This document shows, in pieces, positions 7,984 through 44,845 of a stretch of DNA of 64,000 bases. The stretch is from Escherichia coli. GTDB lineage: Bacteria > Pseudomonadota > Gammaproteobacteria > Enterobacterales > Enterobacteriaceae. Positions within the stretch are counted from its first letter, which is position 1. Each line of letters begins with the position of its first letter. The notes beneath the pieces were generated by a model that had not been told where the DNA came from, made no database searches, and saw nothing but the letters and a program-made list of their open reading frames with translations. The DNA is taken from assembly GCF_003790525.1 (NCBI RefSeq), contig NZ_CP033636.1. One strand, 5' to 3'. The position numbers and the translations under genes are program-made.

Positions 7984-8774
7984 TATTTGCCGATTACCTT
8001 GGTGATCTCGCCTTTCACGTAGTGGACAAATTCTTCCAACTGATCTGCGCGCGAGGCCAAGCGATCTTCTTCTTGTCCAAGATAAGCCTGTCTAGCTTCA
8101 AGTATGACGGGCTGATACTGGGCCGGCAGGCGCTCCATTGCCCAGTCGGCAGCGACATCCTTCGGCGCGATTTTGCCGGTTACTGCGCTGTACCAAATGC
8201 GGGACAACGTAAGCACTACATTTCGCTCATCGCCAGCCCAGTCGGGCGGCGAGTTCCATAGCGTTAAGGTTTCATTTAGCGCCTCAAATAGATCCTGTTC
8301 AGGAACCGGATCAAAGAGTTCCTCCGCCGCTGGACCTACCAAGGCAACGCTATGTTCTCTTGCTTTTGTCAGCAAGATAGCCAGATCAATGTCGATCGTG
8401 GCTGGCTCGAAGATACCTGCAAGAATGTCATTGCGCTGCCATTCTCCAAATTGCAGTTCGCGCTTAGCTGGATAACGCCACGGAATGATGTCGTCGTGCA
8501 CAACAATGGTGACTTCTACAGCGCGGAGAATCTCGCTCTCTCCAGGGGAAGCCGAAGTTTCCAAAAGGTCGTTGATCAAAGCTCGCCGCGTTGTTTCATC
8601 AAGCCTTACGGTCACCGTAACCAGCAAATCAATATCGCTGTATGGCTTCAGGCCGCCATCCACTGCGGAGCCGTACAAATGCACGGCCAGCAACGTTGAT
8701 TCCAGATGGCGCTCAATGACGCTTAGCACCTCTGATAGTTGGTTCGAAATTTCGATGGTCACCGCTACCCTCAT
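7983..8774 (-). CDS. aadA2: aminoglycoside (3'') adenylyltransferase AadA2 (streptomycin/spectinomycin), cassette 1 of integron 1
   Basis: MRVAVTIEISNQLSEVLSVIERHLESTLLAVHLYGSAVDGGLKPYSDIDLLVTVTVRLDE...; start chosen at internal ATG of longer ORF that reads through attI1. Confidence 0.9.
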   Translation of the reverse strand: MRVAVTIEISNQLSEVLSVIERHLESTLLAVHLYGSAVDGGLKPYSDIDLLVTVTVRLDETTRRALINDLLETSASPGESEILRAVEVTIVVHDDIIPWRYPAKRELQFGEWQRNDILAGIFEPATIDIDLAILLTKAREHSVALVGPAAEELFDPVPEQDLFEALNETLTLWNSPPDWAGDERNVVLTLSRIWYSAVTGKIAPKDVAADWAMERLPAQYQPVILEARQAYLGQEEDRLASRADQLEEFVHYVKGEITKVIGK

Positions 8775-8922
8775 GATGTCTAACTTTGTTTTAGGGCGAC
8801 TGCCCTGCTGCGTAACATCGTTGCTGCTCCATAACATCAAACATCGACCCACGGCGTAACGCGCTTGCTGCTTGGATGCCCGAGGCATAGACTGTACCCC
8901 AAAAAAACAGTCATAACAAGCC
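8775..8922. other. attI1 recombination region of integron 1 (approximate)
   Basis: Lies between intI1 start (8923) and first cassette; contains the ORF-11-like leader translated as ...PRASKQQARYAVGRCLMLWSSNDVTQQGSRPKTKL. Confidence 0.55.
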
Positions 8923-16930: not shown

Positions 16931-17133
16931 TTCCGTCTATGCCCTTAAATAAGTGCTGATGAACATTTTTTCACCGCATTACCGCATTTAGGTTATTGCA
17001 TTTAATCTATCGCATATAGGCTATGTCGTTCATTGTGTGCCGTCACGTTTAGATTATGGTGTCAGGGTATACCCTTATGCGATAACCATTTTTGTTAAAA
17101 ATAACGCATCGAATAATTTATGAGGAAAACTAT

Positions 17134-20121
17134 ATGGCAAGGAGGCAGATTCTTTCTCTGTCGGAAAGAGAATCATTACTGGCATTACCGGACGATGAGT
17201 TAACGCTGACCCGAATGGCCTATTTCAGTGAGCATGATCTGGCGCTTATCAGTGCTCACCGTAAACCCGCCAGCCGTTTTGGTTTTGCCGTCCTTCTTTG
17301 CTATCTGAAAAATGTCGGCTTTGCCCCGGATAAAAAAATCTCTCCCTCTGATGCGCTGCTGAAGCATATCGCCAGCAGGCTAAAGCTTACCGGGGATCTC
17401 TGGCCTGCTTACCTTTCCGGCCGGGATACGACCCGGCGTGAGCATTTAACCGAACTGTACCGCTATCTTGGCGTAAAGGCGTTCACCGGCAAAATACAGC
17501 AGGACTGTATTACGCACCTGTTATCGATGGCGACGCGCACCGATAAAGGCATTCTCCTAGCCGAAGAGTTACTTGTCTATCTCCGGCAGAACAACGTGAT
17601 AATCCCCGCGATTGATGTCGTGGAGCGTACCTGTGCTGAAGTCATGGCAGGCGGCGATAAAATCGTATTTCAGACCCTGAATGCCCCGTTAACTCCGGCT
17701 CACAGGGATGCCCTGGATCATTTACTTGAGTCATCAGATAATCAGCCTTCCAGGCTGACATGGCTTCTGCAACCGCCGGGTAAAATCAATGGTAAGAACG
17801 TGCTGCAACATCTTGATCGGCTCAGCAGCATTGAATCGCTGGCATTACCTGAAGGTATAGATCGTACCATTCACCAGAACCGGTTGCTGAAACTGGCGCG
17901 GGAAGGCCGAAAGATGAGTAGCCGGGATTTGACCCGATTTTCAGCTGCCCGGCGTCATGCGATCCTGGTGTGCGTGCTGGAAGAAGCCAGAGCCACACTG
18001 ACAGACGAAGTGATTGAGCTGCATGAGCGAATGCTGAATAGTCTTTTCAGCAAAGCCAAACGAACACAGGCTGAGCGCCTTCAGCAGACCGGAAAGCTGA
18101 TCCAGTCAAAACTGAGGCAGTACATCGATGTCGGTCAGGCGCTGTCTGATGCCCGTGATTCCGGTGGCGATCCCTGGCTCGCAATAGAAAACATACTCCC
18201 ATGGGCTGAATTTGTCGCCAGTCTGGATGAAACACGCCATCTCGCCAGAAAAAATAATTTTGACCCGCTGCATATTATTACCGAGAAATACAGCACATTA
18301 CGGAAATATGCCCCACGCATGTTGTCCGCTTTACAGTTAGTCGCAACCCCGGCAGCGCAACCTCTGGCTGATGCACTGGTTGTGATCAAGGATATGTACC
18401 GGAAGCAGTCACGTAAAGTTCCGGCGGCAGCGCCGCTTGAGTTTGTCCCTGAAAGCTGGCGCAAGGTGGTGATTACACCTGTGGGTATTGACCGGCAGTA
18501 CTATGAGTTTTGTGCACTCAGCGAGCTTAAGGGGGCGTTGCGCTCCGGGGATATCTGGGTTAAAGGCTCGCGCCGCTACAAAAATTTTGATGATTACCTC
18601 ATACCCGAGAAGGACTTTGACAAACTCACACCGGCACTGCCACTGCCCGTATCTGCTGATTATCATGAGTACATTACCAGCCGTATGACCCTGCTTCAGT
18701 CCAGACTTGAAGAGGTCAATGCCATGGCTGCCCTTGGTGAACTGCCCGATGTGGAAATATCCGACAGGGGCGTAAAAGTCTCTCCGCTGGATAACTGCGT
18801 TCCGGCGCAGGTTTCACCGCTGGCAGAGCTGGTTTACAGCATGCTACCGCGACCTAAAATCACGGAAATTCTCGATGAGGTAAACAGCTGGACGACGTTT
18901 ACCCGACATTTTTCGCATATAAAAAATGACATTACCCGTCCCGATACCCGCTTGCTCCTCACCACCATTCTTGCGGATGGCATCAATCTTGGCCTGACCA
19001 AAATGGCAGAAGCCTGCCCCGGGAGCACCAAATCATCACTCGAAGATATTCAGGCATGGTACATCCGTGACGAAACCTATTCAGCCGCTCTTGCAGAGCT
19101 GGTAAATGCGCAGGGGAAAAGACCGTTGGCGGCATTTTGGGGAGACGGAACAACGTCATCATCAGATGGACAAAATTTCAGAACCGGCAGCTCAGGCCGC
19201 TACGCAGGGCAGGTTAACCCGAAATATGGGCAAGAGCCTGGACGTCAGTTTTATACCCATATTTCGGATCAATACAGCCCGTTTTACACCTGCATAATCA
19301 GTCGGGTCAGGGATTCAACCCATGTTCTCGATGGCTTGCTGTACCACGAAAGCGACCTGGAAATCAGGGAACATTACACCGATACCGCTGGTTTCACCGA
19401 TCATGTCTTTGCCCTGATGCATCTGTTGGGATTTGCGTTCTGTCCGCGAATCAGGGATCTCCACGACAAAAAACTGTTTATCAAAGGGAAAGCAGAGAAA
19501 TACCCGGCGCTTCAGTCACTGATATCAACGACCAGCCTGAATCTGAAAGAGATCGAAATCCACTGGCGTGAAGTGCTGCGTCTGGCAACCTCGATAAAGC
19601 AGGGAACCGTGACGGCATCCCTGATGCTGAAAAAGCTTGCCAGCTATCCCAAGCAAAACGGACTTGCCAAAGCACTGAGAGAAATTGGCCGCATTGAGCG
19701 AACCCTGTTTATGCTCGACTGGTTCCGCGACCCGGCTCTGCGTCGGCGGGTACAGGCGGGGCTGAATAAAGGCGAAGCCCGTAACGCGCTGGCGCGTGCG
19801 GTATTTATGCACCGACTGGGAGAAATCAGGGACAGAAAACCGGAAAATCAGAGCTATCGCGCCAGTGGACTGACGCTGCTGACGGCTGCCATATCCCTGT
19901 GGAATACCGTCTATATGGAAAGAGCGGTCGATGCCCTGAAGCGTAAAGGGGTGAAGATCAACGAGCAACTGCTGTCGCATTTGTCGCCGTTGGGCTGGGA
20001 ACACATCAATCTGACAGGTGATTATATCTGGAAAAGCAACCGGATACCGGCTTCTGGTAAGTTTCGTCGGCTAAGACCAGCTAAAGTCGAAAGGTCAAAA
20101 AACAGCCTTAACGTACAATAA
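17134..20121 (+). CDS. tnpA: Tn3-family (Tn21-subgroup-like) transposase TnpA, apparently intact
   Basis: 995-aa [44 protein letters not shown]... to ...[45 protein letters not shown]; SD GAGGA upstream; stop inside 38-bp IR. Confidence 0.9.
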   Translation: MARRQILSLSERESLLALPDDELTLTRMAYFSEHDLALISAHRKPASRFGFAVLLCYLKNVGFAPDKKISPSDALLKHIASRLKLTGDLWPAYLSGRDTTRREHLTELYRYLGVKAFTGKIQQDCITHLLSMATRTDKGILLAEELLVYLRQNNVIIPAIDVVERTCAEVMAGGDKIVFQTLNAPLTPAHRDALDHLLESSDNQPSRLTWLLQPPGKINGKNVLQHLDRLSSIESLALPEGIDRTIHQNRLLKLAREGRKMSSRDLTRFSAARRHAILVCVLEEARATLTDEVIELHERMLNSLFSKAKRTQAERLQQTGKLIQSKLRQYIDVGQALSDARDSGGDPWLAIENILPWAEFVASLDETRHLARKNNFDPLHIITEKYSTLRKYAPRMLSALQLVATPAAQPLADALVVIKDMYRKQSRKVPAAAPLEFVPESWRKVVITPVGIDRQYYEFCALSELKGALRSGDIWVKGSRRYKNFDDYLIPEKDFDKLTPALPLPVSADYHEYITSRMTLLQSRLEEVNAMAALGELPDVEISDRGVKVSPLDNCVPAQVSPLAELVYSMLPRPKITEILDEVNSWTTFTRHFSHIKNDITRPDTRLLLTTILADGINLGLTKMAEACPGSTKSSLEDIQAWYIRDETYSAALAELVNAQGKRPLAAFWGDGTTSSSDGQNFRTGSSGRYAGQVNPKYGQEPGRQFYTHISDQYSPFYTCIISRVRDSTHVLDGLLYHESDLEIREHYTDTAGFTDHVFALMHLLGFAFCPRIRDLHDKKLFIKGKAEKYPALQSLISTTSLNLKEIEIHWREVLRLATSIKQGTVTASLMLKKLASYPKQNGLAKALREIGRIERTLFMLDWFRDPALRRRVQAGLNKGEARNALARAVFMHRLGEIRDRKPENQSYRASGLTLLTAAISLWNTVYMERAVDALKRKGVKINEQLLSHLSPLGWEHINLTGDYIWKSNRIPASGKFRRLRPAKVERSKNSLNVQ

Positions 20122-20144
20122 TTTTCGATATCCAAACTGACCCC
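20107..20144 (-). repeat. 38-bp Tn3-family terminal inverted repeat belonging to the tnpA at 17134-20121
   Basis: Reverse complement GGGGTCAGTTTGGATATCGAAAATTATTGTACGTTAAG; differs from the Tn3, Tn21, Tn1721 and Tn5393 repeats present elsewhere in the window. Confidence 0.75.
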
Positions 20145-20403: not shown

Positions 20404-20766
20404 TCACGGCATCATTTTGATTCTTCGCGTCTGCCCCAGTAAGATGACCGGTTTTCTGCATGACAGTGTTATTCCTAACAAACGCAACACAAAACCACGC
20501 CAGCCAGAGCAAATTTTTTCATTTGCTGCGTAAAGCCTATTGTTTTCTCTTTTAAGCTTCGCCCACTCGTTACAGAGGGTAACATCATCAAGCGCTGTTA
20601 TATGCTTCGCCTCACCTTCGACGATAACGGTATGGATACCGTATGCTGTAAATCTCATACTATTTTCCAGAACCCAGTTGCGGTATTCGTCGAGTCCACC
20701 TTCGGAACCGGTAGCTCTGCGCCACATTTCAATTTGCTTGTGTGATGGGTCAAGTGTACTTGTCAT
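20404..20766 (-). CDS. hypothetical protein (120 aa)
   Basis: ORF only; no recognisable motif. Confidence 0.3.
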   Translation of the reverse strand: MTSTLDPSHKQIEMWRRATGSEGGLDEYRNWVLENSMRFTAYGIHTVIVEGEAKHITALDDVTLCNEWAKLKRENNRLYAANEKICSGWRGFVLRLLGITLSCRKPVILLGQTRRIKMMP

Positions 20767-21408
20767 TGAAGCCTCGTCTCAGCGATAACGCTTGAAATAG
20801 CCCGCTTTGGTCATCATGAAATTAGCCATCTGACTGGCGATTTGATTGTATCTTACTCATAGTGCCCTACCTATAGGTTAAAAAGGGGCATTTTCGCTTT
20901 ATAGCGTGTTCAGCAGCATCAATCCTCCCAAGAAAGGCTGGCTTATTAAGCCGGTCCATCATTTTCTGTATATCTCTCATCAATTTTTATATCCGCCCTG
21001 GAGTGCACCGTTCAAGCACACCGATTAGGCAGATAGTCACTAGTTAACTCTTTACTAGTGACTAAATTCCATTGATATACGTGACAACGTCACGTCATGA
21101 AAGCTTTTAAATGCCTATTTTTCATACAATGGGATTTAATTAGGAGTAAATCCCATAGGCTTACATAAGGATGACAATTAAAAGCGTTAAATATCAACCA
21201 GATAGAATGATTACCCCCAATTAATGGGCTCATCACATTATTTCACTGGCTGGGGTTATTGCTGGCATATCTGAAAGTGCTAATATGTTAGTCATTAGTA
21301 ATTAGTAAAGCCTTTACTAAACGCGTTTCTACGTAATTTCTATAGGTTTTATAGTGTCCTACCTTTGCTCAAATCAAAATGTTCTGACATACCAAAATGG
21401 AGTGTAAA

Positions 21409-22227
21409 ATGACTCAAAACCAGGGTTCTGAGCCAGTACCGGCGAGCCGGACAGGGCAGCTCATCAGCGCCCGGGATATGGCCATGCAGAAATTCGAAGA
21501 AGGGATGCGGTTAATCTCGGAAGCGTCGGAACTGTGCGGTCTCTCTCTCTTCACCAGCAGAATTATGCAGCCCAACGCATTTGGTCTTCCGTCGTCACTG
21601 GATCGCACCATCGAGGAGGGGCGTAAGGAAATTGACCGTAAAACGTGGAAAAGGCTCTTTGAAGAAACAGGTATGGACCGGTACTGGAACCATAAGCAAA
21701 AAGAAGCCTTTAACGAATCCCTTCGTACGGATCCGCCCGTCGCTTCCCTGGAGATTGTTAAGGGAACATTACAGCATGCACTGGCTAACAGACGAGACAC
21801 CCTTGCAGAAGGTTTCGTTGATGTTCTCAACAAGCTTGACCGAAGTTTCAAAAGCAATGCCAGGCAATATACAATGCCAAAAAAGCTTGTTCTTCGGGGG
21901 ATTTTTCCTGGTGTGAACGTGCTGAGGTACAACGGTTTCTCGCAGGACAATCACTTTTGTTTACGCGACTTTGAGAATATTGTATGCATCTGTTCTGATA
22001 CTCCAACACCTGCAACCGGCGGTGGGCTGAGTATGGTCGACAGGCTGACGGCCATGAGAAATACAGAATTCACAGGCGAGGTCAGTGATGAGAATGGCTG
22101 GCGGTGTCGCCTGTTTGAGAATGGAAACGTTCATATTTGCATCGACAGTATCTCGCTTCTGAATGCTCTGAACGATCTTATCAGCATATATTTTGCAAAC
22201 CAGCTTCCGGCCGCAGGAAAAAAATGA
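21409..22227 (+). CDS. hypothetical protein (272 aa), first gene of a two-gene operon
   Basis: ATG at 21409 preceded by GGAG; stop overlaps next start (ATGATGA); low-GC island. Confidence 0.5.
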   Translation: MTQNQGSEPVPASRTGQLISARDMAMQKFEEGMRLISEASELCGLSLFTSRIMQPNAFGLPSSLDRTIEEGRKEIDRKTWKRLFEETGMDRYWNHKQKEAFNESLRTDPPVASLEIVKGTLQHALANRRDTLAEGFVDVLNKLDRSFKSNARQYTMPKKLVLRGIFPGVNVLRYNGFSQDNHFCLRDFENIVCICSDTPTPATGGGLSMVDRLTAMRNTEFTGEVSDENGWRCRLFENGNVHICIDSISLLNALNDLISIYFANQLPAAGKK

Positions 22228-23429
22228 TGATTGAAAATGATAAAGAAAAAAGCCTGAACGATGCTACCCCGCCAGAGGTGCAGAATGACATCCGCAGCGA
22301 ATCCACTGAAAAATCAAAGGAAATGGGTCGTTCAAGGTACTCATCTATCGCGATGATCGATTACTTCAATGCAATCGAACGTCTGTGCAAAGAGAAAGAA
22401 ATTAACCCGGAAAATATCGATCTGAGCTTCAAAGTTCACTGGCTCAGAAACGCTGTTGGCGGCTCGTTTGCAAGGTCACAGGAGATGTTCGCGGAGTACC
22501 AGAAGTATGTTAAAGAGGTTCCTGAAGAGGCCCGTTACCTGGATATACCCGATGAGGTAAAGGTTGCACTCGGCGATATTATCTCGTACATCACCTGGCA
22601 CTACCGTAGAAGCTATACCGCAATACAGAATGATAGTGTTAAAAAAGCTGAAGCACGTAGCATGCAGCTGGAGGAGGAGGTAACGCAGCTGTTACAGCGG
22701 CTTGAGCAAAGCGCTACCGATATGGATGAGCTGAAACTTGAGAATCAGGCACTACAGGGTCGATTAGAGATCCGGGACAGTACCGTCAAGGAGTTAGAAA
22801 CAAGGCTGAATGTTGCCGAAGCAGAACTCGAAACCTGCCATCACCAGTTAGATAGCACACGGCATGAATTGAGCCTCGCACAGCAGTCAAATGACTCACT
22901 CTCCCAGCAACTGGCTGAACGTAAAACAGAGATCGCTGGTCACCTTGAATATCAAAAAAAGCTGAACGAAGAGATCAACACGCAGCGTTCTGATAACGCC
23001 GGTCTTTCCAGACAATGCGACCAGTTAAGTCAGACTGTGTCAGATACAAAGGCAGAGAGGGACAGGTTTGAACAGGAATTGATTGCTGCACAGAACCTTT
23101 GTACTGAGCTGAAAAGTGCACTGTCCGGGAAAGAGGGTGACCTGGTGGCGGTGAATGCCGAGCTTACTGAACTCCATAAACTAAACGAGTCGCTGAGCGC
23201 CGACCTGAATAAAGTAACTTTGGTCAGCCAGGGCTATGAAGCGGAAGTGGCTGAACAAAGCAATGAACTCAAAACGCTCCAGGCCAAAGTAATGAAGCTG
23301 GAAGCTACCCTGGAGGCGGAGAAAACAATCTCAGAATCCCTAAAAGGCACCATTGATACATTAACTGGTGCAATGGCAGGGGGAGGTACTGGAAAGTCAA
23401 AACAGCCGCGTAGCAGAAAAACATCATGA
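22224..23429 (+). CDS. coiled-coil protein (401 aa), KfrA-like architecture
   Basis: Long heptad-rich, Q/E/L/K-rich central region (…LEEEVTQLLQRLEQSATDMDELKLENQALQGRLEIRDSTVKELETRLNVAEAELE…) after a globular N-terminus; translationally coupled to upstream gene. Confidence 0.5.
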   Translation: MMIENDKEKSLNDATPPEVQNDIRSESTEKSKEMGRSRYSSIAMIDYFNAIERLCKEKEINPENIDLSFKVHWLRNAVGGSFARSQEMFAEYQKYVKEVPEEARYLDIPDEVKVALGDIISYITWHYRRSYTAIQNDSVKKAEARSMQLEEEVTQLLQRLEQSATDMDELKLENQALQGRLEIRDSTVKELETRLNVAEAELETCHHQLDSTRHELSLAQQSNDSLSQQLAERKTEIAGHLEYQKKLNEEINTQRSDNAGLSRQCDQLSQTVSDTKAERDRFEQELIAAQNLCTELKSALSGKEGDLVAVNAELTELHKLNESLSADLNKVTLVSQGYEAEVAEQSNELKTLQAKVMKLEATLEAEKTISESLKGTIDTLTGAMAGGGTGKSKQPRSRKTS

Positions 23430-23482
23430 TAAATGAAGCCAGGTTGATACACTTCTCTGCATCCCCTGGCACATAAGAACTT

Positions 23483-23507
23483 CTGCGGACATTCAGCCCG
23501 TCCGCAG
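23483..23507 (+). terminator. putative rho-independent terminator after the coiled-coil gene
   Basis: CTGCGGAC-ATTCAGCCC-GTCCGCAG stem-loop followed by GAGTTTTCG. Confidence 0.45.
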
Positions 23508-23708
23508 GAGTTTTCGTCCTTCAGTCAACAAATGCACTACCTTTTTTGAGTCTCCACTTTCCAGAGCAGAAAACACGTTACCGATTCTACCAACAGCTTG
23601 TATCTGAGTGATAACCCCAGTCTTGTAATCATCTAGGATCCCTGACAGGAAAGCGTTCAGTTTTGTCTGTTCGCTTAGCGAAAGCATGTAGGACATTTTT
23701 TCTCCATT

Positions 23709-44673: not shown

Positions 44674-44845
44674 GGCTTGTTATGACTGTTTTTTTGTACA
44701 GTCTATGCCTCGGGCATCCAAGCAGCAAGCGCGTTACGCCGTGGGTCGATGTTTGATGTTATGGAGCAGCAACGATGTTACGCAGCAGGGCAGTCGCCCT
44801 AAAACAAAGTTATGCAGCCAAATCCCAACAATTAAGGGTCTTAAA
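44674..44845. other. attI1 region of integron 2 (approximate)
   Basis: Between intI1 start and first cassette ATG. Confidence 0.55.

Follow-up and report, generated by a model that had tools for sequence, protein, structure and literature searches.

A DUF4942 gene coupled to a coiled-coil protein gene behind a palindrome-rich leader in the IncHI plasmid backbone: a possible KfrA/TlpA-type autoregulated operon

KfrA proteins have a helical head, a long coiled coil and a basic C-terminal tip, and act as autoregulators whose operator overlaps their own promoter (PMC7783346, PMC7821693). TlpA of the Salmonella virulence plasmid pSLT, a temperature-sensing coiled-coil autorepressor, has been described as a KfrA homologue (PMC7821693). 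The locus presented here lies in a 64-kb stretch of an Escherichia coli contig (NZ_CP033636.1; the whole stretch is called the window below) and comprises a 642-bp leader (20767-21408), a gene for a 272-residue DUF4942 protein (gene 1, 21409-22227, + strand) and a gene for a 401-residue protein with a head and a coiled coil (gene 2, 22224-23429, + strand). The gene 2 protein is KfrA/TlpA-like in architecture, while homology of its head to these proteins is possible but unproven. By analogy with the two described systems, the locus is tentatively read as an autoregulated KfrA/TlpA-type accessory operon of the IncHI backbone. Gene 2 looks like a divergent protein of this type; the coupling to DUF4942, the map of operator and promoter, and the additional invariant palindromes are new.

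The gene 2 protein (WP_001572381) begins with a stretch that is variable and disordered in the alignment of homologues (residues 1-36), followed by a conserved helical head (residues 37-140, 22332-22643), a coiled coil of about 245 residues (residues 136-380, 22629-23363) and a basic tail (residues 381-401, 23364-23426). The chain is free of proline from residue 110 to 394, and in residues 136-380 the heptad contrast reaches 0.474 (shuffles: 0.274 +/- 0.033), bearing out the long coiled coil seen in an earlier inspection of the DNA alone (the sequence-only reading). The head carries the motifs YF-x-x-IE, WLR-x-x-VGGSF-x-R-x-QEM and VPEEAR-x-L-x-IP in the homologue alignment. The coiled-coil stretch is poorly conserved and is followed by a conserved EATL-x-AEKTI-x-x-SLKGTI segment, which precedes the basic tail. 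Homologues are few and come from IncHI-type elements only, and an iterated protein search with the head alignment likewise gave relatives of this kind only. Searched against PDB sequences, a profile of the head gave chance matches only, and database matches to the coil segment are limited to SMC, crescentin and similar coiled-coil families. RefSeq labels the product a hypothetical protein; some GenBank records call it an ATP/GTP-binding protein. The latter label was rejected as an artefact, because the P-loop-like AGGGTGKS (residues 384-391, 23373-23396) sits in the non-conserved C-terminal tail, where other homologues read GAVTIKPK or GGISPRQ.

The likeness to KfrA, known from the IncP-1 plasmids RK2 and R751 and the IncU plasmid RA3, extends to several features of the locus. 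Both are proteins of about 350-400 residues encoded by a plasmid backbone gene (PMC7783346, PMC7821693), with a repeated or palindromic site at their own (for gene 2, candidate) promoter that is unique in the plasmid, and both are co-expressed with a second, partly helical protein, as in the kfrC-kfrA arrangement of RA3. A weak motif, (L/V)R-x-x-(V/L)G-G-S ... (Y/W) ... (I/L)P-x-x-V, is shared in register. Unlike KfrA, the head of the gene 2 protein follows a disordered extension of about 36 residues and has a longer connection between α1 and α2. Gene 2 is also second in its operon, behind DUF4942, rather than first, and has no adjacent korB/incC-type partition genes. In addition, its putative operator, a palindrome of 17 bp, lies downstream of the -10 element, whereas that of KfrA consists of 9-bp repeats around the -10. 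DUF4942 was also considered as a counterpart of the gene preceding kfrA in IncU and was rejected (hhalign probability 0.4%).

Comparison of the gene 2 head with six genuine plasmid KfrA heads in hhalign gave a probability of 13.8%, an E value of 0.002 and a score of 24.9; in column shuffles of the same comparison the mean was 11.3 and the maximum 19.9, and 0/300 reached 24.9. The motifs aligned in register (gene 2 head and KfrA) are P-T/E-N, VR/LR-x-x-LG/VG-GS, W/Y and LP/IP-x-x-V. The predicted helices of the head (H41-58, H62-76, H82-98 and a long helix from residue 110) would be compatible with a layout of α1, α2-turn-α3 and tail. The best pairwise similarity found was to TlpA (371 residues), which shares the layout of head and coiled coil and is likewise plasmid-borne in Enterobacteriaceae. 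In BLASTP the two proteins are 26% identical over 112 residues, from LRNxVGG into the start of the coil (single-comparison E 0.003); LRNAVGG-SF of gene 2 aligns with LRNQVGGGN of TlpA, and the motif LRNAVGG-SF...EYQ...IP-EV is in register. This similarity is, however, not significant at database scale, and TlpA, unlike gene 2, is monocistronic.

The leader is a divergent control region between a leftward open reading frame (ORF) of 120 residues and the DUF4942 gene. It is AT-rich, as previously noted, with 38% guanine plus cytosine (GC) over 642 bp against about 47-51% in the genes. No gene is annotated in it in any matching plasmid record, and no Rfam family was matched. Palindrome 1, TAGTCACTAGT-N9-ACTAGTGACTA (21034-21064), has 11-bp arms and a 9-nucleotide spacer and encloses a distal operator-like copy, TAGTTAACTCTTTACTA (21041-21057). 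P2, ACGTGAC-AAC-GTCACGT (21079-21095), contains the core GTGAC-N3-GTCAC (21081-21093), and P3, ATGGGATTTA-N8-TAAATCCCAT (21129-21156), has 10-bp arms. The proximal operator-like palindrome, Op, reads TTAGTAAAG-C-CTTTACTAA with a one-base spacer (21302-21320; 17-bp core 21303-21319). The three palindromes named in the sequence-only reading all exist, with corrections: the first is longer than the 21036-21062 originally given, the second was placed 1 nucleotide off, and the third has a spacer of C rather than CC. P3 had been overlooked.

The enrichment of palindromes in the leader is real, since five perfect inverted repeats (arms of at least 7 bp, loop of at most 12) are present where 0.63 are expected, and three have arms of at least 9 bp where 0.05 are expected. 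None of 1000 dinucleotide shuffles reached five, and the density over the whole window is 0.8 per 642 bp. The Op motif TAGTAAAGNCTTTACTA, allowing up to 3 mismatches, has only two matches in the window, both in the leader (Op itself and 21041-21057), with 0.06 expected; in about 140 kb of a reference IncHI2 plasmid, the sole match outside the leader has 3 mismatches. P2 and P3 are each unique in scans of the window and the reference plasmid. The motifs of CRP, LexA, TrpR, HipB and Ter sites were compared with the palindromes and rejected on spacing or sequence. DNA looping between the two Op copies was also considered; they are 262 bp apart in the window and 285-286 bp apart in IncHI1-type leaders, and the idea was dropped because helical phasing is not conserved.

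A candidate sigma-70 extended -10 promoter lies at 21259-21286 on the + strand, with a -35 element TTGCTG (21259-21264), a 16-nucleotide spacer ending in TG (21278-21279) and a -10 element TAATAT (21281-21286). In our own position weight matrix (PWM) scan, this combination was among the best rightward candidates; transcription would start at about 21293, and Op sits at about +10 to +27 of this point. Promoter activity of the segment is suggested by its conservation. IncHI2 and IncHI1-type leaders are about 50% identical overall, yet the palindromes named earlier are present in both, and discrete conserved islands follow in the same order: the distal Op motif in palindrome 1, P2, P3, the promoter and Op. 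The promoter island consists of GGGTT-x-TTG, about 17 nucleotides, and TGCTAAT, of which the -35 TTG and TGCTAAT are invariant across these leaders. The Op motif, TAGTAAAG-N-CTTTACTA, reads TAGTAAAG-G-CTTTACTA in an IncHI1-like element embedded in an E. coli chromosome (locus L007), where the arms are 11 bp (CACTAGTAAAG-G-CTTTACTAGTG), and it is conserved with one mismatch in the IncHI1 plasmid pRHB31 (L003). In all IncHI leaders compared it lies directly downstream of the rightward promoter. The palindromes had been taken for operator sites; for Op, its position just downstream of a conserved promoter is consistent with this. The half-site CTTTACTA of palindrome 1 is kept in IncHI1-type leaders, and its right arm has one mismatch in the second IncHI2 lineage. 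The two IncHI2 lineages differ at 55 positions of the 642-bp leader (8.6%), compared with 1.4-2.3% in the genes, and P2, the cores of P3 and Op, the -35, the -10 and the whole stretch 21269-21319 are free of such differences. Between the same lineages, synonymous and non-synonymous codon changes number 8 and 2-3 in gene 1, and 18-19 and 8 in gene 2.

P2 occurs at the same relative place in L005, L003, L007 and L008 (a more distant plasmid with ter genes), with invariant arms in the leader alignment. The arms of P3 are identical in IncHI1-type leaders and its loop differs at 2 positions (ATTAGGAG vs ATTCGGGG). Since the arms of both palindromes are invariant between IncHI2 and IncHI1, without covariation or compensatory change, sequence-specific protein sites are favoured; just two short local hairpins are conserved. 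The exact P2-type 13-mer GTGACACTGTCAC is found in three plasmid types (L016 2372-2384, L008 7576-7588, L007 7698-7710). L016 is a 343-kb plasmid without the coiled-coil gene, and there the 13-mer lies in a long intergenic region adjoining DUF1173. A factor common to these large plasmids, or one supplied by the host, may recognise it. At the equivalent place in L008 (7644-7675) and L015 (5759-5793) there are unrelated perfect AT-rich palindromes with 13-14-bp arms (CTATGCGATATAA-N6-... and TATATGTCGTATAA-N7-...), located 200-330 bp upstream of the DUF4942 gene and each preceded by a GTGAC/GTTAC...GTCAC site; this suggests conservation of a structural element rather than of a sequence. Because of these palindromes, and because the leader folds as single-stranded DNA (ssDNA) more stably than shuffles (z -4.2), a hairpin role of the leader is kept as a possibility. 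Frpo-type single-strand promoters, by comparison, are imperfect hairpins of about 300 nucleotides with the -35 and -10 in the stem, whereas the conserved hairpins of the leader are limited to the two short ones.

The locus is part of the IncHI2 plasmid backbone and is 100% identical to that of many IncHI2 (MOBH, MPF_F) conjugative plasmids from Escherichia, Salmonella, Enterobacter and Klebsiella. The locus query matched 1176 plasmid records, 565 of them with at least 80% query coverage. The conserved gene block runs from H-NS through a DUF6884 protein (-), DUF4942 (+) and the coiled-coil protein (+) to a small ORF (-) and DUF1173 (-), and continues with a small ORF (-), a Dcm-type methyltransferase (-), SNase (+) and a hypothetical protein (+). 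The block recurs in IncHI2, in IncHI1 (pRHB31), in the chromosomal IncHI1-like element and in the ter plasmid, so that the pair is conserved in replicons other than that of the window; in the ter plasmid the identity to the window proteins is 54% for DUF4942 and 28% for the coiled-coil protein. Both proteins are also present in Photorhabdus tasmaniensis, each on a 289-kb contig. The overlap of the two genes in ATGA was confirmed at 22224-22227 (gene 1 TGA, gene 2 ATG), with AGGA 7 nucleotides upstream of the gene 2 ATG, and the junction is -4 to +2 nucleotides in every IncHI-type relative examined. Downstream, a GC-rich hairpin with a 9-bp stem (23483-23507; reported on the - strand, with the + strand stem followed by GAGTTTTCG) lies between gene 2 and a convergent 67-residue ORF (23493-23696, -) and is probably a bidirectional terminator.

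Gene 1 encodes a stand-alone DUF4942 protein (WP_000193209), annotated in RefSeq as 'DUF4942 domain-containing protein' and preceded by a GGAG Shine-Dalgarno sequence 6 nucleotides upstream; an alternative in-frame ATG at 21397 would add four residues (276 in all). Residues 73-261 match DUF4942 (PF13708) at E 3.3e-26 over model positions 2-187 of 190, and the family-conserved residues D76, W80, PP(110), D187, NG(238-239), H242 and N255 are present. In Foldseek the structure matches only other members of the family (probability 1.00), and among solved structures the predicted fold has no homologue. A complete HMMER search over 1.84 billion representative proteins yielded 583 DUF4942 representatives at E<=1e-3. 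Many are stand-alone proteins of 250-290 residues; many others, of 450-520 residues, combine an N-terminal DUF4942 with a C-terminal class I S-adenosylmethionine-dependent methyltransferase domain of about 200 extra residues (e.g. P0079, P0084, P0124), which carries motif I EPxAGxG and motif IV NPPF. Such motifs are typical of N6-adenine or N4-cytosine DNA methyltransferases. In contrast to these fusions, the gene 1 protein shares DUF4942 only; its chain ends at residue 272, directly after the domain, without the gamma-type methyltransferase domain. Outside IncHI, stand-alone DUF4942 genes have no coiled-coil partner, this coupling being found only in IncHI-type elements, and such genes are repeatedly found next to Dam- or Dcm-type methyltransferases in gene strings of mobile elements; in other large plasmids their neighbours are DUF1173, SNase, a PLD-like protein, H-NS and PsiA. 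Because it is the N-terminal module of N6-adenine-type DNA methyltransferases in relatives, DUF4942 is most likely a DNA- or methyltransferase-associated module. NCBIfam, PHROGs and PADLOC hold no informative family for either protein of the pair, the sole PHROGs match being phrog_38825, which has no assigned function. In the literature searched, no study of the locus, of DUF4942 function or of the RefSeq protein accessions was found.

About half of the IncHI2 records belong to the R478-like lineage, with hundreds of conjugative plasmids, in which a distance of 30-80 kb lies between the leader and the genes. They are separated by a Tn7-like sil/pco transposon of about 33 kb or more inserted in the 5' untranslated region, between the genes and the conserved promoter with all palindromes. 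The window carries the empty target site CCTAC (21358-21362), which flanks the insert as a 5-bp duplication in R478-type plasmids. The insert starts with TGTCCGAAGACAATAAAGTTGT and ends with ACAACTTTAATGTCTGTGTACA, has TGT...ACA termini with repeated TAAAGTTGT motifs, and in p17S-208 encodes TnsA, TnsB, TnsC and TnsD, then the sil and pco operons; it was seen at L004 3590-3660, L002 8950-9010 and L023 (NZ_MH077952.1 31500-66500). By analogy with Tn7 and attTn7, the site recognised by a TnsD-type protein could be within the conserved Op region left of CCTAC. In some R478-type plasmids mcr-9 and rcnA/rcnR are near the transposon. Other IncHI2 rearrangement breakpoints fall inside the leader at about 20944, 20968 and 21008, and in L006 a Tn3-like transposase is directly adjacent; with these breakpoints and the Tn7-like site, the leader is an insertion hot spot. 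After insertion all palindromes remain with the leftward operon, with P2 and the cores of P3 and Op intact. Both genes are also intact in this lineage, and since the pcoE end of the insert is about 380 bp before the DUF4942 start codon and has the same orientation, read-through into them is possible. In the IncHI1 plasmid pRHB31-C07_2 (L003 6929-7744) the reading frame of DUF4942 is interrupted by a nonsense codon at about position 152 (YKTNA*QFV, against YKSNAQQFV in the intact L007 allele), with the downstream coiled-coil gene intact. Because the transposon splits promoter from genes, and because of this nonsense codon, a conjugative plasmid can function without the native regulation and at least without gene 1, which argues against a core maintenance or addiction function.

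Taken as a KfrA/TlpA-type operon, the locus would work as follows. The extended -10 sigma-70 promoter would drive a bicistronic, translationally coupled mRNA for the DUF4942 protein and the KfrA/TlpA-type protein. The latter would combine a small head resembling a helix-turn-helix (HTH) domain, a dimerising coiled coil and a basic C-terminal tip. By analogy with KfrA and TlpA, its dimer or oligomer would bind the 17-bp palindrome at Op (21303-21319) and also, about 260 bp further upstream, a second and weaker copy (21041-21057), repressing its own operon and perhaps a divergent leftward promoter too. P2 and P3 would be further sequence-specific sites for other factors, with DUF4942 as a co-expressed DNA- or methyltransferase-related partner. 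The operon may have an accessory role in plasmid establishment or maintenance.

Several results weigh against such an operon. The likeness to KfrA drawn in the sequence-only reading holds for the architecture but is weakly supported for the head: neither the gene 2 head nor any of 11 aligned family members has a Pfam match to KfrA_N (PF11740) at E<=10, and by this criterion the protein is outside the KfrA family. The hhalign probability given above is low, and an unrelated helical control (the head against DUF4942) scores 20.1, near the 24.9 of the KfrA comparison. In a hidden Markov model (HMM) search of 1435 ORFs TlpA was the third-best match outside the family, at E=4, and the AlphaFold2 (AF2) model of the head is of low confidence (pLDDT 57). 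A stricter consensus promoter scan reported no promoter in the leader. The Op motif is absent from the ter plasmid despite its coiled-coil partner, although such an absence would be expected if protein and operator co-evolve. The P2 sequence in a plasmid without the coiled-coil gene implies that at least P2 is bound by something else. Finally, there are no par or kor genes within +/-12 kb of the pair, while KfrA operons normally adjoin partition and central-control genes.

The findings on P2 lead to an alternative, somewhat unlikely as a whole, in which the palindromes are operators for other regulators (a host factor, or a plasmid regulator of the leftward operon of the 126-residue protein, the DUF6884 protein and others, or of both promoters) and the coiled-coil protein is a structural or scaffold component. 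The presence of P2 in the ter plasmid and in the unrelated 343-kb plasmid fits this well, as does the retention of the intact sites with the leftward operon after the Tn7-like insertion; furthermore, the cluster of palindrome 1, P2 and P3 is 55-175 bp upstream of the leftward promoter candidate ranked best in our PWM scan. It accounts less well for Op, which is immediately downstream of the conserved rightward promoter in every IncHI leader and whose motif is confined to the leader, as is typical of a local autoregulator, and no HTH regulator gene is annotated beside the leader. The hairpins and DUF4942 could also be explained by an establishment or anti-restriction island expressed early after conjugative entry, the hairpins acting in ssDNA as promoter or priming sites and DUF4942 aiding restriction evasion. 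This is unlikely. It would agree with the fusion of DUF4942 to N6-adenine-type methyltransferases, with its neighbours in mobile elements and large plasmids, and with the stable ssDNA fold and the differing palindromes at the same position in L008 and L015; the locus and the relaxase are on opposite sides of the mobI/MobH relaxase region, toward which the + strand genes of the locus point. Against this, about 30 kb of backbone separates the locus from the relaxase region, the conserved hairpins are short and local rather than a long Frpo-like stem, and their arms are invariant without covariation; DUF1173 and Dcm next to the pair are encoded on the opposite strand, gene 1 lacks the methyltransferase domain, and none of the known anti-defence or defence models was matched.

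A two-gene defence or toxin-antitoxin-like system, a role the sequence-only reading had also suggested, is very improbable. The pair is a tightly coupled plasmid unit in a neighbourhood that also contains HNH proteins or endonucleases, a helicase, HipA and SNase, and PADLOC gives coiled-coil matches of gene 2 to LmuB and JetC models. These matches are low-scoring and limited to the coiled-coil segment, and amount to noise; gene 1 has no PADLOC family (PADLOC-DB 2.0), and neither protein has a recognisable enzymatic domain. Disconnection of the promoter, and a gene 1 nonsense allele beside an intact gene 2, are tolerated, unlike in an addiction module. The locus is probably an accessory, self-regulated plasmid function rather than a defence system. 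Nor does the earlier suggestion of a plasmid maintenance locus hold in the sense of a core function, given the 33-kb transposon between promoter or operators and genes in hundreds of IncHI2 plasmids and the lack of partition genes nearby. IncHI plasmids are known for temperature-sensitive transfer. It is conceivable, but quite unlikely, that gene 2 encodes a TlpA-like thermosensor and autorepressor with temperature-dependent binding to Op, forming with DUF4942 a sequence-specific nucleoprotein scaffold in the temperature-sensitive biology of these plasmids (conjugation, establishment or maintenance). On this view P2 and P3 would also belong to a cis-acting region, small and so far unnoticed, with a control or hairpin function.

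Plasmids of the IncHI1 and IncHI2 types are important vehicles of resistance to multiple drugs, colistin (mcr-1, mcr-9) and heavy metals, and much of their backbone is annotated as hypothetical. The reading as a KfrA/TlpA-type operon provides a testable map of one conserved backbone operon, with a promoter, two operator copies, two further invariant palindromes and a candidate autoregulator. It also gives a context to the uncharacterised DUF4942 family, as an N-terminal methyltransferase module and a recurrent neighbour of DNA methyltransferases, DUF1173, SNase and H-NS. Its use lies in the annotation of IncHI backbones and as an entry point to DUF4942; current understanding is not contradicted. 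A thermosensor or segregation scaffold, if true, would bear on the temperature sensitivity and stability of IncHI plasmids. The practical importance is moderate, the function being accessory and evidently dispensable.

Some further features of the surroundings were observed. DUF4942, DUF1173, an SNase-family nuclease, an H-NS paralogue and often a Dcm-type methyltransferase form a recurrent neighbourhood across different large plasmid families (23493-27436 in the window; L007, L008 and L016), which may be an uncharacterised establishment-type module; in L016 (CP063404.1) it adjoins PsiA. The left edge of IncHI2 backbone homology in the window is at 20142, further left of which is a Tn3-family transposase within an IS26/integron mosaic; the transposase gene (17092-20121) abuts the backbone and truncates a DUF6884-like leftward gene. 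The first leftward ORF has 120 residues in the window (20404-20766, -) and 126 in the reference annotation, and a 1-nucleotide offset between the two suggests a frameshift near its 3' end. Two Rfam matches of AAC_AAD_leader/attI type above the gathering score (8755-8830, -; 44763-44829, +) correspond to class 1 integron cassettes in the IS26-rich resistance mosaic (1-20141 and about 37600-62300).

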